Shown piece after piece: positions 7,132 through 37,113 of a stretch of DNA of 64,000 nucleotides. Below the pieces are notes generated by a model. That model was not told the origin of the DNA. It saw only the letters and a list, made by a program, of their open reading frames with translations, and searched no databases. Each line of letters begins with the position of its first letter. The stretch's first letter is position 1. Both the position numbers and the translations under genes were made by a program. This DNA is from a virus. Its lineage: Duplodnaviria > Caudoviricetes. Location: positions 1-64,000 of IMG/VR virus record IMGVR_UViG_3300048855_000167. The stretch is one strand, 5' to 3'.

Positions 7132-7350
7132 TTAATCCTCAGTTGGATGATCTTCTGCTCTTGCTTCCGCGATGAAATTTTCGCGGACTTTCTCTGGCAA
7201 TCGCCGCCATCGGCGGACGCATGCCTGCTCCGGGGTCTCCGGGATCTGTTTGCCGTTGAGATTGAGCACCAGGCAGGAGCCAACCCCGAAGGCGATGAAG
7301 CGTCGGTAGATTTCGAAGGCTCGCGCCTCAATCAGTTCGTCGTCGATCAA
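7132..7350 (-). CDS. Hypothetical protein
   Basis: TTG start overlapping upstream stop (TTGA) with GGGGTGGA SD; IDDELIEARAFEIYRR. Confidence 0.55.
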   Translation of the reverse strand: MIDDELIEARAFEIYRRFIAFGVGSCLVLNLNGKQIPETPEQACVRRWRRLPEKVRENFIAEARAEDHPTED

Positions 7351-7517
7351 AGATCCACCCCATGCGCTCGTGCGAGGCACTGAACGCGGGATGATTCGAT
7401 GAGCTCTTTCTGCTCGACGGACAGCTGTTCGCCGCGGTGCCATGCCTTAATGGCCTCAACCGTGGCGGAGCGAGCGTCGGTGGCTTTCGCCAATGCAGAT
7501 TGTATCGAGTGATTCAT
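7347..7517 (-). CDS. Hypothetical protein, first gene of pL-like operon
   Basis: MNHSIQSALAK; just downstream of predicted promoter. Confidence 0.45.
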   Translation of the reverse strand: MNHSIQSALAKATDARSATVEAIKAWHRGEQLSVEQKELIESSRVQCLARAHGVDL

Positions 7518-8214: not shown

Positions 8215-8952
8215 TCAGATCGATCGGCCGAACCACATGACCCGGCCGGCAATGTTGAGCAGATCCACTTCGCCAGAGGTAACTTCTTCCGCCGGGTACT
8301 TAGGGTTGTCGCTGATCAGCTGAAGAGACCCGTTCATCCTTCCGTGGATTCGCTTCACCAGGACCATATCCCCATAGATCACCACATAGATGGCGTTGTC
8401 CTTCACCCGGTTTATCGAGGTGTCGACGAGCAAGACGTCACCGTCTCGAATCGTCTCCTCCATGCTATCGCCGCGGGCGCTGAGGATGCGAGCGGCCGAC
8501 GGATTGACGCCTTTCGCGCGCAGCCAGTGAGATTGGAACGCGAGATATTCTAACGGATCTTCGCCATAGGGAACCAACCCGTTCCCCGCTGATGCCTGGA
8601 CATCAAGACGCGGGATCAACGCGAATTCCTGGGAGCCTCCGCCTTCCGTCTGGAAATAGAAGACGTCGCCGTCGGCTTTTCCTTTAACGAGCGCCGTCAC
8701 CTCGGACTCGGCGCCAATCGAAGTCACTTTATACGCGCCGTCGGGAGTGCCGAACATCAACCATGCGGGGTCTACATTAAAGTGCTCCGCGTATTTGATC
8801 GCAGCCAAGCGGTCGAATTCCCGCGTGCCGTTTTCATGCGCTGTGTAGGTAACGATCTTCGTATTGATCCTGCGAGCAGCATCAGATGCCGTTTTATCAC
8901 CTGCTTTTGCCCGGGCAAAACGTAACCGAGCGTGCGGAGTATCCAACTTCAT
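8215..8952 (-). CDS. CI-like repressor (XRE HTH plus S24 autopeptidase)
   Basis: N-terminal HTH (RLRFARAKAG...YTAHENGTR); RGDSMEETI and MVLVKRI catalytic Ser/Lys; in-frame alternative start at 8985. Confidence 0.92.
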   Translation of the reverse strand: MKLDTPHARLRFARAKAGDKTASDAARRINTKIVTYTAHENGTREFDRLAAIKYAEHFNVDPAWLMFGTPDGAYKVTSIGAESEVTALVKGKADGDVFYFQTEGGGSQEFALIPRLDVQASAGNGLVPYGEDPLEYLAFQSHWLRAKGVNPSAARILSARGDSMEETIRDGDVLLVDTSINRVKDNAIYVVIYGDMVLVKRIHGRMNGSLQLISDNPKYPAEEVTSGEVDLLNIAGRVMWFGRSI

Positions 8953-8982
8953 GCTCTCTGAAACTCCTCTTTTGTGTGGCTT

Positions 8983-9027
8983 CATACGTTACGTATTGAC
9001 CGAATAAAAATGCGTTCCGTATATATT
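8983..9027 (+). promoter_or_regulatory. pR-like promoter with two operators
   Basis: CATACGttaCGTATT (8983-8997) overlapping TTGACC; AATGCGttcCGTATA (9009-9023) overlapping TATATA/TATATT. Confidence 0.7.
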
Positions 9028-24235: not shown

Positions 24236-25402
24236 CTAGACGGAAATGCTGATCGGCTCACCGAACGGCAGATCCGCCGTCAACTCGTCGAACTTGCGCG
24301 GGTCGCCGTAGACCCCCCACAAAACCGGGATGTCCGGGTCGTCGCCGAAGTCGTAGACCTCCAGGTCGGTGAGGTAGATGATGAAGCGTGCATCCGGGTA
24401 CCGCTCCATGATGACCCTGAAGGAGTCGCGGAATGCGGTGCCGCCGCCGCCAACCGGGCGGAGCTTGAGCTCGTCCCCGTTCTCGAACTCCTCGATCCCC
24501 TGCACCTTGGCGTCGGCGTAGATGACGGTCAGCTTGTCGACCGCGCCCTCCTGGAATGCACCGTTGATTTCCGCGGCGAACGCCTTGCAGGGGACATCGT
24601 CGAAGACGGAGCCGGAGGAGTCCTGCACGATAACGCCGTGGCTGACGCCGTCACTGATCAAGCCCGGGGTGATGTAGCCGAGCGGCAGCATGCGCCGGTT
24701 CGGCTTAGCCCAGCTGAAATCCCTGGTCATGGACTCGTCGATGAAGCGGCGGAGCACCGCGCGCCAGTCCACCTTGGGGCGGAGCAGCTCTTCCACGAGC
24801 TTCGCGATGTTGGCGGGTAGTTTGCCGGCCTGCGCTCCCTTAGCAGCCATGGCGGCCTGCTGGATCTGCACGTTCATCTCCGCCTCGAGCTCGGCAATGG
24901 CCGACTGGTCATGCGGTGCGCAGCCGTCGAGCACACCGCCGCAACCGCCGCCGTCCATGCTGTTCTCGTCGGAGTCGTCGCCGTTGTTCTCATCGTCGAG
25001 GATTCGGTAGATTTCCTCAGCGGAGAGCCCAGTGAAACGCGGCTCAAGCAGCCCGCATTCCGGCATCTTGCCGACCTTGCACTCGACCAGTTCGCCGTTG
25101 ATGGCGTAGTCGGCGGCCTTGTTCCAGCGCCCGGGCTTGCGGTGCTGCCGGCGGGTGTGATGCTTCAGCGCGTTGTGCATGACCTCGTGAGCCAGGACGA
25201 AAACCAGCTCGTCCTTCTTCAGGTCCATGACGAACGGCGTGTGGTAGTAGAGGTGGCGCCCGTCGGTCGCCATCGTGTCGATGCGCGGGTCATTGGTCGC
25301 ATCGATCTTCTTCAGCTGCAGCATGAGCACGCCGAAGAACGGGTGGTCCCATAGCAGGGCCGTCTGCGCGGCGAGGATCTTGTCTTGGACGTTCATGGTC
25401 AT
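24236..25402 (-). CDS. DUF2201-type metallopeptidase plus vWA domain protein
   Basis: TMATDG, AHEVMH (HExxH), WNKAADYAIN, MIDAS-like DSSGSV, GGGGTAF, YLTDL. Confidence 0.88.
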   Translation of the reverse strand: MTMNVQDKILAAQTALLWDHPFFGVLMLQLKKIDATNDPRIDTMATDGRHLYYHTPFVMDLKKDELVFVLAHEVMHNALKHHTRRQHRKPGRWNKAADYAINGELVECKVGKMPECGLLEPRFTGLSAEEIYRILDDENNGDDSDENSMDGGGCGGVLDGCAPHDQSAIAELEAEMNVQIQQAAMAAKGAQAGKLPANIAKLVEELLRPKVDWRAVLRRFIDESMTRDFSWAKPNRRMLPLGYITPGLISDGVSHGVIVQDSSGSVFDDVPCKAFAAEINGAFQEGAVDKLTVIYADAKVQGIEEFENGDELKLRPVGGGGTAFRDSFRVIMERYPDARFIIYLTDLEVYDFGDDPDIPVLWGVYGDPRKFDELTADLPFGEPISISV

Positions 25403-26252: not shown

Positions 26253-26613
26253 CCATCTTCCCTCCTCGGATTGAGATCGCCGTCACCTCGGCGATATCTT
26301 CGGGCCTGAGCATCGACTTGAGTGCCACTGCCACGCTGCCTTTTGGGAGCATGCTGCGCAGGATGGCGATCGGGCGGTAAAGGTCCGCGAGATCGTTCGT
26401 GTGAACCTTGTCCCAATGGTTCACGGACAAGGCGGTCGAGGTGAATTTGCGCGTCCTCATGCTGAACGCGAGGTGATATCTGCGTAGTTCACCGGCGGCT
26501 GTCACGCCGATGAACTCCCACTTGCAGATCTCGATCACGCGGTCCGGGAAGGAGCCGGAATCACTCGTCTTGTACGAGATCGGCCCGGCAATCCAATGCA
26601 GGCCTTTATCCAA
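26245..26613 (-). CDS. Hypothetical protein
   Basis: 122 aa, overlaps AAA stop. Confidence 0.6.
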   Translation of the reverse strand: MDKGLHWIAGPISYKTSDSGSFPDRVIEICKWEFIGVTAAGELRRYHLAFSMRTRKFTSTALSVNHWDKVHTNDLADLYRPIAILRSMLPKGSVAVALKSMLRPEDIAEVTAISIRGGKMGA

Positions 26614-27613
26614 GCGTCACGTCCTGGTTCCGCACTGCCCAATCCGTGAAGGTTTGGGTGTGCGAAAGCCCTGCGTCACGGCGGACAGCGTCGACCGCGA
26701 ACATGATCTCGAACTCACGGGCGGGGATGCGTCGGATGTAGGCCATGCCGTTCTCGAACGTCTTGGCATCGACGCGCCGGCCGAGCGCCGCCGAGATTGC
26801 GAACCGTGCCGAAGGATCTTCGGGAAGCGGCGCGCTGTTCGGGTTGGCAAGAACCAGGTCCAGCGAGGGGAGCTTCTGGTAAACCCGAATGAAGCCTTCC
26901 AGCTCGCCGGCCGCACCGTCGCCGACGACGCCCGAGATCAGCGACAGGCGACGTGCCGAGTCCTTCTCGATGTATTTGGCCGCTTGCTCCCATGACCGCG
27001 GCGTCGGGAATGCACGGTCGTCGGACGACTCCGGCATCTTGTGGATGAGGTGCGGCCGGAAGCGGAGGAAGGCAATCATGATCGGGTCCATGCCGATCTT
27101 GTTGAAGTGCTCGACATGCACGTTGTCGTGGCCGGCGCTGGTGTCGGCCTCGATATCAATGTGAGCGAAGCGGTTGGCGAGTGCGGTCGGCATGCGCTGT
27201 GCTGCTGCGCGGTCCGATTGACGATTGCCGGCGGCAACCACGCGCCAGCCATCGGGCAGCTTGTAGTCGCCGACCCTGCGATCGAGGACCAGGCCGAACA
27301 TGGCGGCCATCATGGACGGCGGTGCGGCGTTGAGCTCGTCGAGGAAGAGGATGCCTTCCGGACCGTCGCGCTCCACCTGCGGAAACTCGTCGGGCACCTT
27401 CCATTTCGTGGTGTCGCCGGAGATATCGGGAAGGCCCATGAGGGCAACCGAGTCACGGGTGGAAGCGCGGAAGTCGATCAGGCCCCACTTGCGTTCCGTC
27501 TTGATCTGCACGGTGATTGCGGACTTGCCGACGCCGGGCGGCCCCCACATAAACGCTGGGGTATCTTCGTCGAGGTAGTCGTTCAGATTAAGAGCGGCTG
27601 TCTTAATGTGCAT
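26606..27613 (-). CDS. MoxR/dynein-related AAA+ ATPase
   Basis: WGPPGVGKS, LFLDELNAA, VAAGNR, ALANRFAH, TPRSWE. Confidence 0.92.
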   Translation of the reverse strand: MHIKTAALNLNDYLDEDTPAFMWGPPGVGKSAITVQIKTERKWGLIDFRASTRDSVALMGLPDISGDTTKWKVPDEFPQVERDGPEGILFLDELNAAPPSMMAAMFGLVLDRRVGDYKLPDGWRVVAAGNRQSDRAAAQRMPTALANRFAHIDIEADTSAGHDNVHVEHFNKIGMDPIMIAFLRFRPHLIHKMPESSDDRAFPTPRSWEQAAKYIEKDSARRLSLISGVVGDGAAGELEGFIRVYQKLPSLDLVLANPNSAPLPEDPSARFAISAALGRRVDAKTFENGMAYIRRIPAREFEIMFAVDAVRRDAGLSHTQTFTDWAVRNQDVTLG

Positions 27614-31353: not shown

Positions 31354-31923
31354 TCAGGCGGCAATGTCCATTTCCGCCTGCTCCGGTGCGGCCGCCGGTG
31401 CCGTCTTGACGGCCTTCGCCTTGGCAGGCTTTTCCACCTTGACCGGTGCGACGACAACGTTCGGCGTCTTAGCCAGCGTCAAGGCACCCTTGACCGCCTG
31501 CAGAACGCGAGGAGACGCACCCTTTTCCGTCAGGGTCGAGACCACTTTTTCCAGATAGGCGACTTCATCGAATTCCTTTTCGGACGTCGCCTTGCCTGCC
31601 GAGCGTTCATAGTTGGCAGGTGCGATTTCCATCGCCTCATCCATCTTGGAAGCCTTCCCCTTAACGTAGGTGAAGACACTGGTTGCCTTGTCAAACGAGA
31701 CCTTGCCGAAAGCCGTCGACCACGAAACGAGACCCTTGCGGTAGTTGACCGGAGTCACCGCATAAAGCGCGTTGAGGTATTTCGGATCGTTGTGCAATTC
31801 GACATGGTTGAGTGCCGAATATGCAAGCTGATGCTCGCGCTCCGAAAAGGTCGAAACGACCTTGCCGAAACCGTTGATTGCCGAATTGAGCTTGGAACCA
31901 GTGAGAACAACGAACTTAGCCAT
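31354..31923 (-). CDS. Hypothetical early phage protein
   Basis: MAKFVVLTGSKLNSAING; GGAGA SD plus hairpin motif; Ala/Lys-rich tail. Confidence 0.8.
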   Translation of the reverse strand: MAKFVVLTGSKLNSAINGFGKVVSTFSEREHQLAYSALNHVELHNDPKYLNALYAVTPVNYRKGLVSWSTAFGKVSFDKATSVFTYVKGKASKMDEAMEIAPANYERSAGKATSEKEFDEVAYLEKVVSTLTEKGASPRVLQAVKGALTLAKTPNVVVAPVKVEKPAKAKAVKTAPAAAPEQAEMDIAA

Positions 31924-32012
31924 AACCATTTCTCCATTTGTGCCATGATTGGCGGGTTTGAAGCGATTGCTTCACTAAAGGCATGCCGTTGGACATGCCC
32001 TTAAAGCTGCAA

Positions 32013-32189
32013 TCACAAGGCCATTGCGGCCTCATCTTTCCGACGTTCAATTTCCTTCCGGTGAGACCGTGCCGTTTCTTCCGCCGTGATCGATCCGGCT
32101 AAATTACCGTTTCGAAGGTGAGAAGCCGCACGACGTTCCATGTAAGCCGCAAGGTTTTCCAACGCCTGAATTGCCCGTAGTTCTTCCAT
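32013..32189 (-). CDS. Small helical protein, first ORF of the island
   Basis: MEELRAIQALENL after GGAGGGG SD. Confidence 0.55.
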   Translation of the reverse strand: MEELRAIQALENLAAYMERRAASHLRNGNLAGSITAEETARSHRKEIERRKDEAAMAL

Positions 32190-32243
32190 CTCGTTCGCCC
32201 CTCCACTGAAAGAGCAAGGCCGTTCGCCTTGCCGTCGCAATGG

Positions 32244-32700
32244 AAAAGGCCCGCCAGATTGAGACCGGCAGGCCCTTAGAAACTTTGATGTTTCGGTTAT
32301 TCGGTTGTTTGTTCTCTGAAATCCCGTGCCTGTATCGGTTGAGGGTTGCAGCACTGAAGGCATATTGCCTTTGCCAGAGTTGACGCCTTGAACCATGTTT
32401 CCATGGCCTAGCTCTCATCCGATGCAAGTGTTTTCAATCCGCACCTTGCCGCGCGTTCTTCGCCTAACCCGCGCTTTGTCATGAGCGGTAAACCGTCGCC
32501 GGTTTGCGTTGCCTGATTCGTGACCGCGTTTCTCGTTCGCCCAAGCTTTCTTTCAATCGCCAGAAACCACACGAACGAGTGTTCGTCACGTCTCTGGTAC
32601 ACCTGCCGAAAGCTTGGCAAGAAACCGTCATCTTGTTTTCAAAGAACCCGGCGAACCGCCTAACCGGCTTGCCGTCCCGAATGCTTTTCTTCATTCGGTA
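32244..32700 (-). ncRNA. Candidate structured leader or non-coding RNA (about 460 nt) ending in a terminator-like hairpin
   Basis: Nested helices; UUCG, GCGA and GAAA tetraloops; G-U pairs read on minus strand; terminator-like stem at 32244-32274. Confidence 0.55.
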
Positions 32701-32710
32701 TGAACAAGAT

Positions 32711-32725
32711 AATACGTTTCGTATT
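32711..32725. promoter_or_regulatory. Perfect repressor operator at the island promoter
   Basis: AATACGtttCGTATT; context CAATACG-N3-CGTATTATCT same as pL; half site at 32797-32811. Confidence 0.75.
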
Positions 32726-33154
32726 GAGTAAAAGCCCTAAATTACGAAAAACATGCCGAAACCGGATATCATATTGAAAACATTGGAAAAGAAAAATTGC
32801 TGAAACGTATTGCTTCCTGTTCACAGCTGCCAAAAGTAGACCAGTTTTTCAGCCGATATCCGCAAAATTTACCCAATTAAATCAGCGTCTTAGACGAGGA
32901 AAATAGGGTGTCGAGCCGTCCTCCGGTTTGAGGCATGCCAAAAAAGCCAGCAAAACCAATAGGGCGTTCGCCTGGTAGCGAGCCTATACGACGCGAATAA
33001 ACAGCACTCGAAAGGGGCAGGGGGAGGCAAGGGAACGAGAAAGAGCCCCGCTTGCGTGTTAACAGTGCTGCGAGTCACACAAGCTTCCAGAACGTCGGAT
33101 TGCGTCCTGAGTGATCCGGCTTCCAGCTTCCCCCCTTCCATCACCAGCACGCTA

Positions 33155-33423
33155 GGCAGCACCCGCCGCGCATATCCTTCCAAGCCGGGTTAGCGCCATT
33201 CCGCGCACCGTCACCGCTACGCCGCGACCGCTTCACCGCGACCACGCAAGCAAGCGAACCATTGACGCAAGGCAGGTGGAAGGGGGAGGGGCAAGCCCCC
33301 GGAGGGGGAAGGGGCAAGGCACCCGCCACCATGCCAGCGCGTCACCTGCCGGCCTGCCAAGCCGCACCCTTGGCACTCGCCCCCCGGCAGCACCCGCCGC
33401 GACCATAGGCAGACAAGCACCCG
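33155..33423 (+). repeat. GCACCCG direct repeats
   Basis: GGCAGCACCCGCCGCG at 33155 and 33385; partial copies at 33318 and 33417. Confidence 0.5.
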
Positions 33424-33474
33424 TGCCGGGCATTAATTCAATGATATCAATGCGCTAGACACCCCCGCCGGGCT

Positions 33475-33508
33475 AGGTTCTTCCGAGGGGGAGGGGGCGA
33501 CCGCGGGT
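33475..33508 (+). other. Putative lambda-like cos site
   Basis: AGGTTCTTCC...GGGGGCGACCGCGGGT resembles lambda cosQ/cosN; upstream of Nu1/gpA-type terminase. Confidence 0.5.
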
Positions 33509-33592
33509 CGGCGGCAGCGCAGCCTTTGAGCGTTTTTGTTATTTCGAAATTCGCCCTTCCGATTCCCGTTTTTCCAGCGAGAGGAAGCGATC

Positions 33593-33847
33593 GTGTTCAG
33601 ATCTCCATTCAGCATCACGCCGGTGACGGACGGGCGAGGCGTGGTCACTGGCACCAGGTACTTCTTCGACGAGCTCGACGAGGATCAACGTGAGGAAATC
33701 ATTCGCAAAATTCCTCGATCGTTCCGGCTGACGACGAAGAAGAATAATTCTCCGGGTCGGGCAAGAAATGACCAGGCGCCACCGGGCGGATACCCCGCGC
33801 CGTGCGAAATCATTCTACGGATCGCATCACGAGAATGCGCAACGTAG
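33593..33847 (+). CDS. Hypothetical protein
   Basis: GTG after GAGGA SD. Confidence 0.35.
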   Translation: MFRSPFSITPVTDGRGVVTGTRYFFDELDEDQREEIIRKIPRSFRLTTKKNNSPGRARNDQAPPGGYPAPCEIILRIASRECAT

Positions 33848-34563: not shown

Positions 34564-35147
34564 TGGTGGCCCGGACTAAAAACGCCGCAGCACCGGTGAA
34601 GTCGTCCACGAAGGCCCTCAAGCCCTTGAAAACCAAGGCGGGGAAGGCGGACGAAAAAACGGCCGTCGACGAGATGGTCGTCAACCAGACCGAAATGGCT
34701 GCCGTCCTGGGCGTGACCACGCGGTGGCTCCGGGAGCAAACCGCGGCTGGCATCGTCCCAACGGAAGGACGAGGGCGCTTCAAGATCGGCGCCGTCGTCC
34801 AAGCATACATCGCCTACTCCAAGGAAGGGGCGGTGAAAAAGACCGGGACCGAGAGCCTGGACGATCTCCGAAAAGAAAAGGCCCTCGACATCCGCCTCGC
34901 TCGAGCGCGGAAGGATCGTGAAGTCATCGCCCTCGACGAAGCCATCAGCACGGCAGAGGAGTTGGCTGGCTTGTTCGTCTCCTCGCTCGTCGGTCTCCCA
35001 GCACAGATAACGGGGGTGCCGAGAGAGCGGCAACGGCTGAATGACATCTTCGACGCAGAGCGCTTACGCCTCACCGATCGTTTCACCAAAAGGATCGCAA
35101 CTCTTCGCACGGGCGAGGAAGATCCTGACTCCACGGCCGAGGACTAA
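34563..35147 (+). CDS. Terminase small subunit (Nu1-like)
   Basis: Winged HTH VNQTEMAAVLGVTTRWLRE, then coiled coil. Confidence 0.8.
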   Translation: MVARTKNAAAPVKSSTKALKPLKTKAGKADEKTAVDEMVVNQTEMAAVLGVTTRWLREQTAAGIVPTEGRGRFKIGAVVQAYIAYSKEGAVKKTGTESLDDLRKEKALDIRLARARKDREVIALDEAISTAEELAGLFVSSLVGLPAQITGVPRERQRLNDIFDAERLRLTDRFTKRIATLRTGEEDPDSTAED

Positions 35148-37113
35148 CCCGGTCGAGTGGGGCAAAACCCGCGAATACAAGGAAACGGCCGGGCATCCCG
35201 GACCGCGCAACCCCTACAAGACGCCGTACATGGTGCCTTTCGCCATGCGGGTTCATGCGCGCACTCACAAGCGCGTCGTCATGGTGGTGTCGGCGCAGTC
35301 CGGAAAATCGGAAACGTTCCTGGACCTGATGGGCGAGCGCCTGGACACGGCGCCGGTGCCGATCATCTACGTCGGCCCCTCGAAGCGATTCATCACCGAG
35401 CAGTGGGAGCCCCGAATCCTCGAGTTGATGACCGAGACGTCGCTCAAGGATCGGGTCGGCGCCAAGAGCCGGCAGACCAAGAGCCGCAAATTCATCAACG
35501 GTGTCCCGCTTCGCCTGGCACACGGCGGCTCGACCGGCGCCATGAAATCCGACCCGTTCGGCATGGCGCTCACTGACGAAGCCGACGAGCTCATGAAGGA
35601 GCTCAAGGGGCAGGGTAACCCGATCGGCCTGATCGATGCGCGCGGCGACACCTACGCAGACTTCGTGCATGCGATCACGTCAACGCCGAGCGAGGGGGTG
35701 GCTGAAGTGGAAGTCGACCCTGAAAGCGGCCTGGAGTTTTGGGGCGAGAGCGATCCGGAAGAGGTCAAGTCGACCGTCTGGCGCCTCTGGATGACCGGCA
35801 CCCGGTACCATTGGGCATGGCCTTGCCCGCACTGTGGCGAGTATTTTATCCCGCGCTTCACCTGCCTCGGCTGGGAAAAGCCGAGGGACAAGGACGACCG
35901 GGAGCTGCCGTCGACGCCGATCATGGCGATGCAGACCGCGCACCTGGTTTGTCCGCACGGCTGCGTGATCTTCGAAAACGAGACGGTCACCGTCGAGCCG
36001 GCCAACCTGCCGGCGAAGGAATGGATGAACACCCGCGGCGTCTATGTTGCCCCAGGCCAGAAGATCCTCGCTGACGGCACAGTCGAGGGCCCCGTCCCGG
36101 AAGCGACAACGGTCAGCTATTGGGTGTCGGGCTTGTGCTCTCCGTTCGTGCCGTGGGGCGAGCGCGCTCAGCGCTACGTGGAAGCGGTACGATCGGGCAA
36201 CCCTGGCGACATCGCGGCCGTCAAGAACCAGGGCTTCGGCGAACTCTATTCGCCAGGTGGCGGCGCGGTACCGGAGTGGAAGGAAGTCGCCGCGCGGGCC
36301 AGCCCGGACTATCGCTGCGATGAGATCGCAGAAGGTGTCCGCGTCCTAACGCTCACTGCCGACGTCCAGAAGGACCGGATCTATTACACAATCCGCGGAT
36401 GGGGAGCGCACGGGACGTCTTGGCTGGTGAAGGCCGGCGAATTGTACGGGTCGACCGAAGAGCTCGAGGTCTGGAACGACCTGGCAGTGGTCGTCACAGA
36501 CACCTACGACGGCATCCCGATCCGGTTGGCGCTGGTCGACTCCGGCTTCCGGCCCGGCAAGAAATTCGTCGTTCCAGAGCACCGTGTCTATGCGTTCGCT
36601 CGTCGCTTCCCCCAGCTTGTGAGGGCGACGAAGGGCGCATCGACAACGATGAGAAAGCCGATCAGCACCAACACGATCGACATCAACATCGACGGCAAGG
36701 ACATCAAGAAGGGCCTCGAGCTGGTCCGCCTCGACACCGATTACTTCAAGAGCTGGGTGCAGCAGAAGATCCGGTGGCTCGATGACCAACCCGGCTCCTG
36801 GTACCTGCCCGAGGATATTTCGGAAGATTACTGCAAGCAGATGGTCTCCGAAGCTCGAGTCCGCGCACCGGGCGGCAAAGTCAAATGGATCATGAAGTCG
36901 AAGGCGAACCACTACTTCGACTGTGAGGCCATGCAGGGCGCAGCGTGCATGCTGCTCAACCTGACGAAACTGAGAGATGGACCGCCGCAGCGTCGGCGCC
37001 CCGTCCAAGAGCAACCAGCATCACCACAAGAATTGGCTCGGCCGGCGCAACCCAACAAGGGGGGCAGCCGTCCCTCCAGCTATTGGGGAGGTGCTTCAGA
37101 CAGGTATTGGTGA
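35041..37113 (+). CDS. Terminase large subunit (gpA family)
   Basis: SAQSGKSE, LTDEADE, STP, CPHCGE, LTADVQ, LVDSG, NHYFDCE. Confidence 0.93.
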   Translation: MTSSTQSAYASPIVSPKGSQLFARARKILTPRPRTNPVEWGKTREYKETAGHPGPRNPYKTPYMVPFAMRVHARTHKRVVMVVSAQSGKSETFLDLMGERLDTAPVPIIYVGPSKRFITEQWEPRILELMTETSLKDRVGAKSRQTKSRKFINGVPLRLAHGGSTGAMKSDPFGMALTDEADELMKELKGQGNPIGLIDARGDTYADFVHAITSTPSEGVAEVEVDPESGLEFWGESDPEEVKSTVWRLWMTGTRYHWAWPCPHCGEYFIPRFTCLGWEKPRDKDDRELPSTPIMAMQTAHLVCPHGCVIFENETVTVEPANLPAKEWMNTRGVYVAPGQKILADGTVEGPVPEATTVSYWVSGLCSPFVPWGERAQRYVEAVRSGNPGDIAAVKNQGFGELYSPGGGAVPEWKEVAARASPDYRCDEIAEGVRVLTLTADVQKDRIYYTIRGWGAHGTSWLVKAGELYGSTEELEVWNDLAVVVTDTYDGIPIRLALVDSGFRPGKKFVVPEHRVYAFARRFPQLVRATKGASTTMRKPISTNTIDINIDGKDIKKGLELVRLDTDYFKSWVQQKIRWLDDQPGSWYLPEDISEDYCKQMVSEARVRAPGGKVKWIMKSKANHYFDCEAMQGAACMLLNLTKLRDGPPQRRRPVQEQPASPQELARPAQPNKGGSRPSSYWGGASDRYW

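Follow-up and report, generated by a model that had tools for sequence, protein, structure and literature searches.

We find that positions 32245 to 32700 of the window (the whole 64,000-nucleotide stretch of viral DNA analysed here, positions 1 to 64,000 of IMG/VR record IMGVR_UViG_3300048855_000167) encode on the minus strand a real structured RNA that represents a new family, present in approximately 18 related alphaproteobacterial prophages. This RNA lies behind a promoter that carries a repressor operator, contains a boxA-like element identical over 12 bases to the boxA of a host ribosomal RNA (rrn) leader, and is followed by two terminator-type hairpins before the first conserved gene of a long operon. 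Judging from sequence and comparison, we consider it best explained as a cis-acting antitermination leader dependent on boxA and Nus factors, essentially a nut-like site enlarged by a big folded RNA, although we would put the chances of this reading at about even. A preliminary description of this DNA, made from the letters alone, had proposed a structured non-coding RNA of no recognised family behind a repressor operator, and all six of the minus-strand features that it listed are present; the match of boxA to host rrn leaders is new. The features to which we refer below are as follows.

32706 to 32734, minus strand: promoter with repressor operator, the positions of its -35 and -10 elements conserved in relatives
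32245 to 32700, minus strand: the structured RNA as a whole, known from about 18 loci, with a folding z of -4.9, no Rfam match and no conserved ORF
32677 to 32698, minus strand: H1, 5' terminal hairpin CCGAAUG/CAUUCGG, kept as a hairpin in relatives
32650 to 32673, minus strand: H2, two-tier hairpin adjoining boxA with one G between them, a hairpin being found before boxA in 15 of 15 relatives
32632 to 32648, minus strand: boxA-like element GGUUCUUUGAAAACAAG, invariant or nearly so in the family
32647 to 32636, minus strand: 12-mer GUUCUUUGAAAA within the boxA-like element, about 55 nt from the predicted start
32521 to 32630, minus strand: 5' arm of six stacked helices, P1 to P6, covered by covariance model R1, with compensatory changes at 33 of 37 pairs
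32490 to 32505, minus strand: H3, small hairpin AAACCG-GCGA-CGGUUU with a variable, covarying stem
32469 to 32488, minus strand: H4, hairpin with the conserved loop (C)AUGACAAA, kept on differing stems
32455 to 32462, minus strand: CGAAGAAC, which may pair with the boxA core GUUCUUUG as the 3' strand of a candidate long-range helix, P0
32329 to 32454, minus strand: 3' domain, with hairpin H5 (loop GGCAAG) and a candidate long-range helix CUUGCAUCGG / CCGAUACAGG
32278 to 32328, minus strand: G-poor linker with ACCGAAUAACCGAAAC, preceding T1
32245 to 32277, minus strand: T1, terminal hairpin of 13 bp with flanking A/U pairs, followed by UUUU(CC)
32013 to 32189, minus strand: 58-aa cargo ORF between T1 and T2, with Shine-Dalgarno sequence (SD) GGAGGGG, in the window and the Rhizobium sp. 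CF080 prophage only
31966 to 32012, minus strand: T2, second terminator-type hairpin (-22.0 kcal/mol), with compensatory changes in all relatives
31354 to 31929, minus strand: 191-aa gene (phrog_1448, no assigned function), the first of the operon to be conserved

The three-tier nested arm of the preliminary description is real and proves to be the best-supported part of the RNA. In an alignment made with MAFFT and without any structure (A4), 94% of the cells of the six-helix arm are paired and 23 of its 37 pairs show double changes, against 35-56% of cells paired and 3 to 10 double-change pairs in a control in which the partners were slid by one to three columns. We count this comparison first because the alignment of 15 distinct sequences to the covariance model, with 93% of cells paired and compensatory changes at the 33 pairs listed above (10 to 16 when slid), leans towards the model that guided it. 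Beyond the arm, RNAalifold applied to seven full-length sequences gives compensatory changes in 36 of 70 predicted pairs, and for the complete 462-nt RNA the folding energy is -173.8 kcal/mol (z -4.9 against dinucleotide shuffles). The covariation expected among homologues of a structured non-coding RNA is therefore borne out. Moreover, G-U pairs are frequent and two of them are invariant across all 15 sequences, so that the fold is specific to the minus-strand transcript, as had been suggested from a G-U pair that would become A-C on the other strand.

Comparison with known RNAs likewise upholds the earlier impression of an unfamiliar family. None of the 4227 families of Rfam 15 (including GOLLD, ROOL, 6S, RNase P, tmRNA, introns and riboswitches) reaches its gathering score anywhere in the window, a permissive scan of 31800-33300 gives chance-level matches only (E 1.3-6.8, below the gathering score), and Rfam scans of 12 relatives find no match on the RNA. 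ARAGORN reports neither a tRNA nor a tmRNA, and 32245-32700 contains no tandem repeats of the kind that would point to a ToxI-like RNA of a type III toxin-antitoxin system.

It could be argued that the region is not an RNA at all, but rather a small protein gene (the 71-aa ORF at 32694-32479, or a 127-aa ORF from 32396) or a site acting at the DNA level, such as a packaging signal or replication origin. ORFs of 70-127 aa are indeed open across the RNA in the window, and the region lies only about 0.75 kb from a presumed cos region. However, the 71-aa ORF and its neighbours find protein-level matches in near-identical relatives only, though distant relatives keep the DNA; indels of 1 and 2 nt fall inside the internal ORFs among relatives; searches against Pfam and PHROG return no hits; and in public records no gene is called here. 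The in-frame ORF from 32396, whose conservation as protein the preliminary description had named as evidence against an RNA, is among those not conserved at the protein level. Together with the one-strand specificity that the G-U pairs confer on the fold, these data already contradict a reading without RNA, which we regard as highly improbable. The stretch at 32900-33800, between the promoter of the RNA and a 253-aa gene, is itself gene-free, partly very GC-rich and strongly AT-skewed, and holds a 14-nt tandem repeat (33213-33243) as well as a block kept in distant relatives (approximately 33431-33572); cos or a packaging region may lie here.

Within the RNA, conservation of hairpins is frequently accompanied by change in the sequence of their stems. 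H1, seen previously as a 5' hairpin, takes stems such as CGAAAC/GUUUCG or UAUCG/CGAUA in relatives. The letters of the CGG-UUCG-CCG tetraloop that had been described next are present, but the conserved fold at this place is H2, with an outer tier GGC/GCC, an inner tier AGCCG/CGGUU and UUC as a junction, and therefore no tetraloop. In the 5' arm the internal loops are conserved (GGUGUAC / GCGAUUGAA and CGUGAC / GUGUGG) and the terminal loop is variable, reading ACUC, UUU, UUAA, UUCG or CUU. The stem of H3, another of the hairpins reported earlier, covaries through AGC/GCU, AUC/GAU and AGAGAGG/CCUCUCU, and the H4 loop UGACAA is found on stems of different sequence in 11 of the 13 distinct relatives examined. 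The fold of the 3' domain is less certain than that of any other part of the RNA and stands as a candidate only; the domain occurs in at least two forms among relatives that all share the 5' domain. Here the candidate helix CUUGCAUCGG / CCGAUACAGG encloses a variable insert containing CCAUG-GAAA-CAUGG (32406-32393) and AAGGC..GCCUU (32371-32357). The former had been listed among the structural features and does exist, yet it falls in a variable region that accommodates insertions of approximately 120-190 nt in some relatives. A pairing of boxA with UUUCAGAGAAC near the 3' end, which appears in the minimum-energy fold of the window and otherwise in the closest relatives only, was dropped.

Relatives were identified through searches with the 191-aa protein, which recovered IMG/VR prophages and the genomes of Rhizobium sp. 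CF080 and Pseudochrobactrum asaccharolyticum, and pattern scans added three viral contigs to this set. In a large protein database the 191-aa protein has 56 homologues, and the surrounding DNA was examined for eleven, including those of Rhizobium sp. SSA_523, Pseudorhizobium banfieldiae, Brucella sp. TWI432, Ancylobacter sp. 3268 and Pararhizobium sp. BT-229. The covariance model R1, which describes the 5' domain in 143 positions and 37 pairs, matches the gene-free stretch in all loci examined but two. One of these (L202) was missed by R1 although on reading the RNA is present with a diverged arm, and the other (L195) is a remote 30% protein match; a further locus, L224, is an additional member of the family. 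Measured from the predicted start to the terminal hairpin, the RNA is approximately 455 nt long in the window and 424-585 nt in relatives.

The genomic setting of the RNA is constant, as each of the approximately 18 prophages carries it between the terminase genes and the 191-aa gene, and it was seen in this one syntenic slot only across the loci and genomes searched. To its right in the window, on the plus strand, lie the 253-aa gene, a small terminase and a GpA-type large terminase (35041-37113), and to its left, on the minus strand, the 58-aa ORF, the 191-aa gene and a long series of small genes; in relatives the terminase genes are followed by a gene for a protein of about 230 aa, then by 1.1-1.7 kb in which no genes are called, and finally by the 191-aa gene. 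The family is rare, with the RNA in 2 of 151 sampled genomes of the family to which Rhizobium sp. CF080 belongs and the 191-aa protein in 3 of 401 sampled genomes of the order. A blastn search of the region against 50,697 GenBank phage records gave no match, and among the matches listed (at least 120) from a metagenome pattern scan with the boxA 17-mer all were due to chance and none was a family member. Parts of the stretch occur in 15 public sequencing runs, one of which is an RNA library, and the only contig from that library covers the 191-aa gene and not the structured RNA. This contig, from a soil metatranscriptome, is 209 nt long and identical to 31675-31883 within the gene; it may originate from RNA or from carried-over DNA.

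The AT-rich promoter region consists of a -35 element CTTTTA (CTTGCG or CTTGTC in relatives), a 17-nt spacer and a -10 element TATCTT, which would place the start of transcription near position 32700. The spacer is filled by the operator palindrome AATACGaaaCGTATT (32725-32711), of the form AATACG-N3-CGTATT, which occurs at four sites in the window where 0.06 would be expected. The three remaining copies are located beside the gene for a CI-like repressor with a helix-turn-helix and a peptidase S24 domain (8215-8985), and the suggestion that the RNA stands behind a repressor operator is consequently confirmed by a palindrome common to the CI region. Among relatives, the palindrome in the spacer switches type, ATACG-N3-CGTAT versus CGTAC-N4-GTACG, between the window, L012 and L003 on one side and L017, L196 and L201 on the other, while the RNA is kept. 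Such a change of operator type with retention of the RNA would be expected if immunity specificity were swapped independently of the RNA.

The second conserved element of the 5' region is boxA. The 12-mer GUUCUUUGAAAA is identical at 12 of 12 bases to the boxA of the rrn leader in the host genome of one relative (L192), located 200 nt upstream of 16S on the same strand, and at the homologous leader position the Pseudochrobactrum genome has GUUCUUUGAAAU (11 of 12 bases matching) and the Rhizobium CF080 genome GUUAUUUGACAA (9 of 12). In all three host leaders a hairpin ends one base before boxA, and a hairpin likewise directly precedes boxA in the 15 aligned relatives. A site of boxA type occurs once in the 64-kb window. 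The diverged locus L202 carries the variant AUGAUCUUUGAAAA, and position 2 of boxA is U, C or A within the family; known boxA sequences likewise vary at their second position. The phage 12-mer fits the gamma-proteobacterial consensus GYTCTTTAANA (PMC5725501) and also the boxA of B. subtilis, AUGAUCUUUGAAA, which directly follows a small hairpin of the rrn leader, the boxA of E. coli being UGCUCUUUAACA (PMC13753749). Between the RNA and the host rrn leaders boxA (12-13 nt) is the sole matching part, and homology beyond it was rejected. We also considered ATTGCAGC as a signal repeated throughout the operon, but it is not enriched (60 occurrences against 56 expected).

A potential complication is that the sequence CRAAGRAC, complementary to the boxA core, is present approximately 185 nt downstream, just 5' of H5, with both types of 3' domain. 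The conservation of the boxA core could thus be, in part, structural, through pairing in the candidate helix P0. As both strands of P0 are nearly invariant, covariation cannot decide on this helix. Nevertheless, position 2 varies without compensation in the candidate partner strand, and the GAAAA part of the invariant motif lies outside P0, which together count against a purely structural explanation of the conservation.

Downstream of the RNA, T1 and T2 are placed between it and the 191-aa gene in all relatives. T1 (-22.9 kcal/mol, z -4.6) corresponds to the terminal stem and U run of the preliminary description; the stem holds, in an extended form and with compensatory changes in relatives, whereas the U run is less constant, being UUUU in the window and 0 to 5 U in relatives. 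Given that the U tract is weak or absent in L204 and L017, T1 may serve to stabilise the 3' end instead of terminating transcription. T2 is followed by a hairpin GAAGCAAUCGCUUC, a mini-hairpin GCCAAUCAUGGC and the SD of the 191-aa gene. In loci without a cargo ORF, the interval from T1 to the start codon is made up of approximately 100 nt of hairpins with no promoter-like stretch, and the operon therefore seems dependent on read-through from the promoter of the RNA; further hairpins lie between its later genes. We also note that 31930-32012 (minus strand) forms a composite element of AUUGCAGC, T2, GAAGCAAUCGCUUC, CCCGCC, a mini-hairpin GCCA-NNNN-UGGC and the SD, which recurs before the 191-aa gene with covarying stems in L017, L012, L196, L198, L200 and L204 and could act as a further RNA signal that governs processing or translation. 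Cargo is carried between T1 and T2, where the 58-aa ORF of the window gives way to an unrelated 60-80-aa ORF (MDFETAIESN...) in L012, L200, L204 and L205, to other ORFs in L198 and L199, and to no ORF in L017, L196 and L197.

The 191-aa protein has no hit in Pfam, and neither its sequence nor its fold points to a relative of solved structure. It is modelled with confidence as helical (pLDDT 77), ending in a disordered tail rich in Lys, Ala and Pro. Its only similarity is to uncharacterised phage proteins, among them those of lytic podophages that infect Pseudomonas, Rhizobium and Caulobacter, and it therefore offers no clue to the function of the RNA. Further along the leftward arm, also on the minus strand, are genes for an AAA_5 (MoxR-like) ATPase (26606-27613) and a DUF2201 metallopeptidase/vWA-like protein (24236-25402).

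The preliminary description had left a stand-alone RNA and an antitermination or attenuator leader side by side. Because an rrn-type boxA and two terminator-type hairpins precede the first conserved gene, the leader or antitermination branch is favoured, and from this layout we infer Nus factor binding, action in cis and read-through. Under such a model, the RNA would be the untranslated 5' part of the third early operon transcript, of a 16-kb operon under CI-type operator control. Upon loss of the repressor, host RNA polymerase would start near 32700, and about 55 nt into the transcript a hairpin and then GUUCUUUGAAAA, a signal also found in host rRNA leaders, would emerge. The boxA would load NusB-S10, with NusA, NusG and SuhB, onto the polymerase, and the 110-nt six-helix arm and the 3' domain would stay tethered to it, stabilising or extending the complex in the role played by boxB and N in lambda or by the put RNA in HK022. 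The polymerase so modified would pass T1, T2, later hairpins and Rho sites to transcribe the 191-aa gene and approximately 25 further genes, and an unmodified polymerase would halt at T1, releasing an RNA of about 455 nt. The best-supported reading is thus of a nut-like site whose large fold would substitute for boxB and N, or else add a put-like grip on the polymerase. Several observations weigh against a leader. The boxA core could be hidden in the finished fold by pairing with CRAAGRAC, the 3' domain is swapped between its two or more forms, which is odd for one fixed mechanism, and the variable U tract means that T1 may not act as a terminator. The rrn-type complex, moreover, is established mainly as a defence against Rho, and to our knowledge no nut site requires anything approaching 455 nt. 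A search for an N-like protein turned up none that was convincing.

In the main competing view the folded RNA would itself be the product, a stand-alone, trans-acting large non-coding RNA whose transcript normally ends at T1 and which could serve as a decoy, a scaffold or a ribonucleoprotein component early in infection. Its own promoter and conserved GC-rich terminal hairpin fit this view, as do its size, its many helices and its conserved internal loops, which typify RNAs that are functional in themselves, and its modular 3' domains and insertions resemble those of other large phage RNAs of unknown function. In that case boxA would merely shield the untranslated transcript from Rho, or the resemblance would be incidental; boxA is also reported to precede other long untranslated transcripts such as CRISPR arrays (PMC13753749). 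On the other hand, the stretch from T1/T2 to the 191-aa gene shows no recognisable promoter, and the operon accordingly seems to share that of the RNA; the family's confinement to one syntenic slot is not easily accommodated; and a tightly folded transcript should have little need of protection from Rho. We lean towards a leader over a stand-alone RNA, which we rate as unlikely, though as the most serious of the competing explanations.

Alternatively, the leader may be conditional, an attenuator that senses the state of the host (free NusB-S10, another factor or a ligand) and in which exposure of boxA, or its pairing in P0, sets the fraction of polymerases that pass T1. The boxA core and its conserved complementary strand would permit mutually exclusive states, a terminator-type hairpin is present 3' of the RNA, and boxA-dependent control of non-rRNA genes has been described for suhB (PMC5725501). 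Yet a poorly structured linker of approximately 50 nt separates T1 from the conserved core, no alternative pairing with the T1 stem is seen in the folds, and we recognise neither a motif resembling a ligand pocket nor an Rfam riboswitch match, so that we regard attenuation as improbable, more so than a stand-alone product.

Comparison with known antitermination signals helps to delimit what is unusual about this RNA. The nut sites of lambdoid phages (lambda, P22 and phi80 nutL) combine boxA with boxB or a core hairpin and act with N and host Nus factors. As in these sites, boxA here lies approximately 55-60 nt after a repressor-controlled early promoter and before terminators and a long early operon, and the phi80 record, with pL, two hairpins and a boxA annotated about 60 nt into a leader of approximately 400 nt, shares both the two hairpins before boxA and the general leader layout. 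Homology to the phi80 pL leader was rejected, as none was found by covariance model (filters off), by nhmmer or by blastn below E = 1. Unlike lambdoid nut sites, the RNA has no boxB-type hairpin with a conserved loop, the helix after boxA being the base of a 110-nt covarying arm that is followed by another 250-400 nt of structure. In place of the pair nutL and nutR, there is one boxA and a single strong R1 match inside the 64-kb window of a 74-kb record, about 10 kb of which lies outside the window. A credible N protein is also lacking from what was found. The minus-strand ORF 7132-7443 begins with an arginine-rich MAPRRTAVRRAERAHR in its window form, but the alignment with its homologues in five related phages begins no earlier than residue 23-32, and these homologues appear to have later starts; with its arginine-rich start not conserved, the ORF is a doubtful candidate for an N-like protein. 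This ORF is a small gene downstream of the leftward operators near cI, with a conserved core ...ETPEQACVRRWRRLP....

The bacterial rrn antitermination signal comprises a hairpin, boxA and boxC and works with NusB-S10, NusA, NusG and SuhB. The phage RNA has the same boxA sequence as the host leaders with a hairpin directly before it, and differs in heading a phage operon instead of rRNA and in sharing nothing with those leaders outside boxA. With HK022 put, EAR and conAn2 it would have in common the role of a cis-acting folded RNA that heads a long mobile-element operon and allows many terminators to be passed, as we propose here. HK022 put consists of two stem-loops in approximately 70 nt and acts alone on RNA polymerase, without boxA, in contrast to the many helices, the greater length (424-585 nt) and the boxA of the present family. 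No sequence or Rfam relationship of the RNA to put, EAR or conAn2 was found. The conAn2 regions of pLS20-type plasmids, at 260-600 bp, are of similar size and work with a protein, ConAn1, while put and EAR are much smaller and none of these is described with a boxA (PMC8191782). GOLLD and ROOL are large, many-helix prophage RNAs of unknown function with their own promoter and terminator (10.1101/2024.12.08.627333); the RNA described here resembles them in these respects, with T1 as putative terminator, and differs in its lack of an Rfam match, its alphaproteobacterial hosts, its fixed place at the head of an operon and its boxA.

These differences raise the possibility, which we advance tentatively and regard as somewhat doubtful, that the family forms a new class of large (420-590 nt), many-helix alphaproteobacterial phage RNA that is either a self-sufficient antiterminator or a trans-acting early product. 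In the first version, a large RNA domain that grips RNA polymerase would be joined to an rrn-type boxA. In the second, the RNA would be transcribed first from the leading end of the genome as it enters the host and would act in trans on a host target, and here the placement of cos is presumed; the doubt just expressed applies to both versions taken together. Were the first true, it would add a fourth RNA-based processive antitermination system to the three (put, EAR and conAn2) counted to date (PMC8191782).

Few large structured bacterial RNAs are left to find, and the covariation seen here is unusually clear given the small number of sequences. Being large and modular, the RNA is well suited to structure determination, and the promoter, RNA and two terminator-type hairpins form a compact, testable cassette for rhizobial genetics. 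If the RNA proves to act on its own, it would count as a new phage RNA of unknown function that is made as soon as the lytic programme begins. If the antitermination model is true, it would demonstrate early antitermination in temperate phages outside the enterobacteria, in which the host's rRNA boxA has been borrowed and a large RNA added instead of, or besides, an N protein, and would extend RNA-based processive antitermination to the Alphaproteobacteria.
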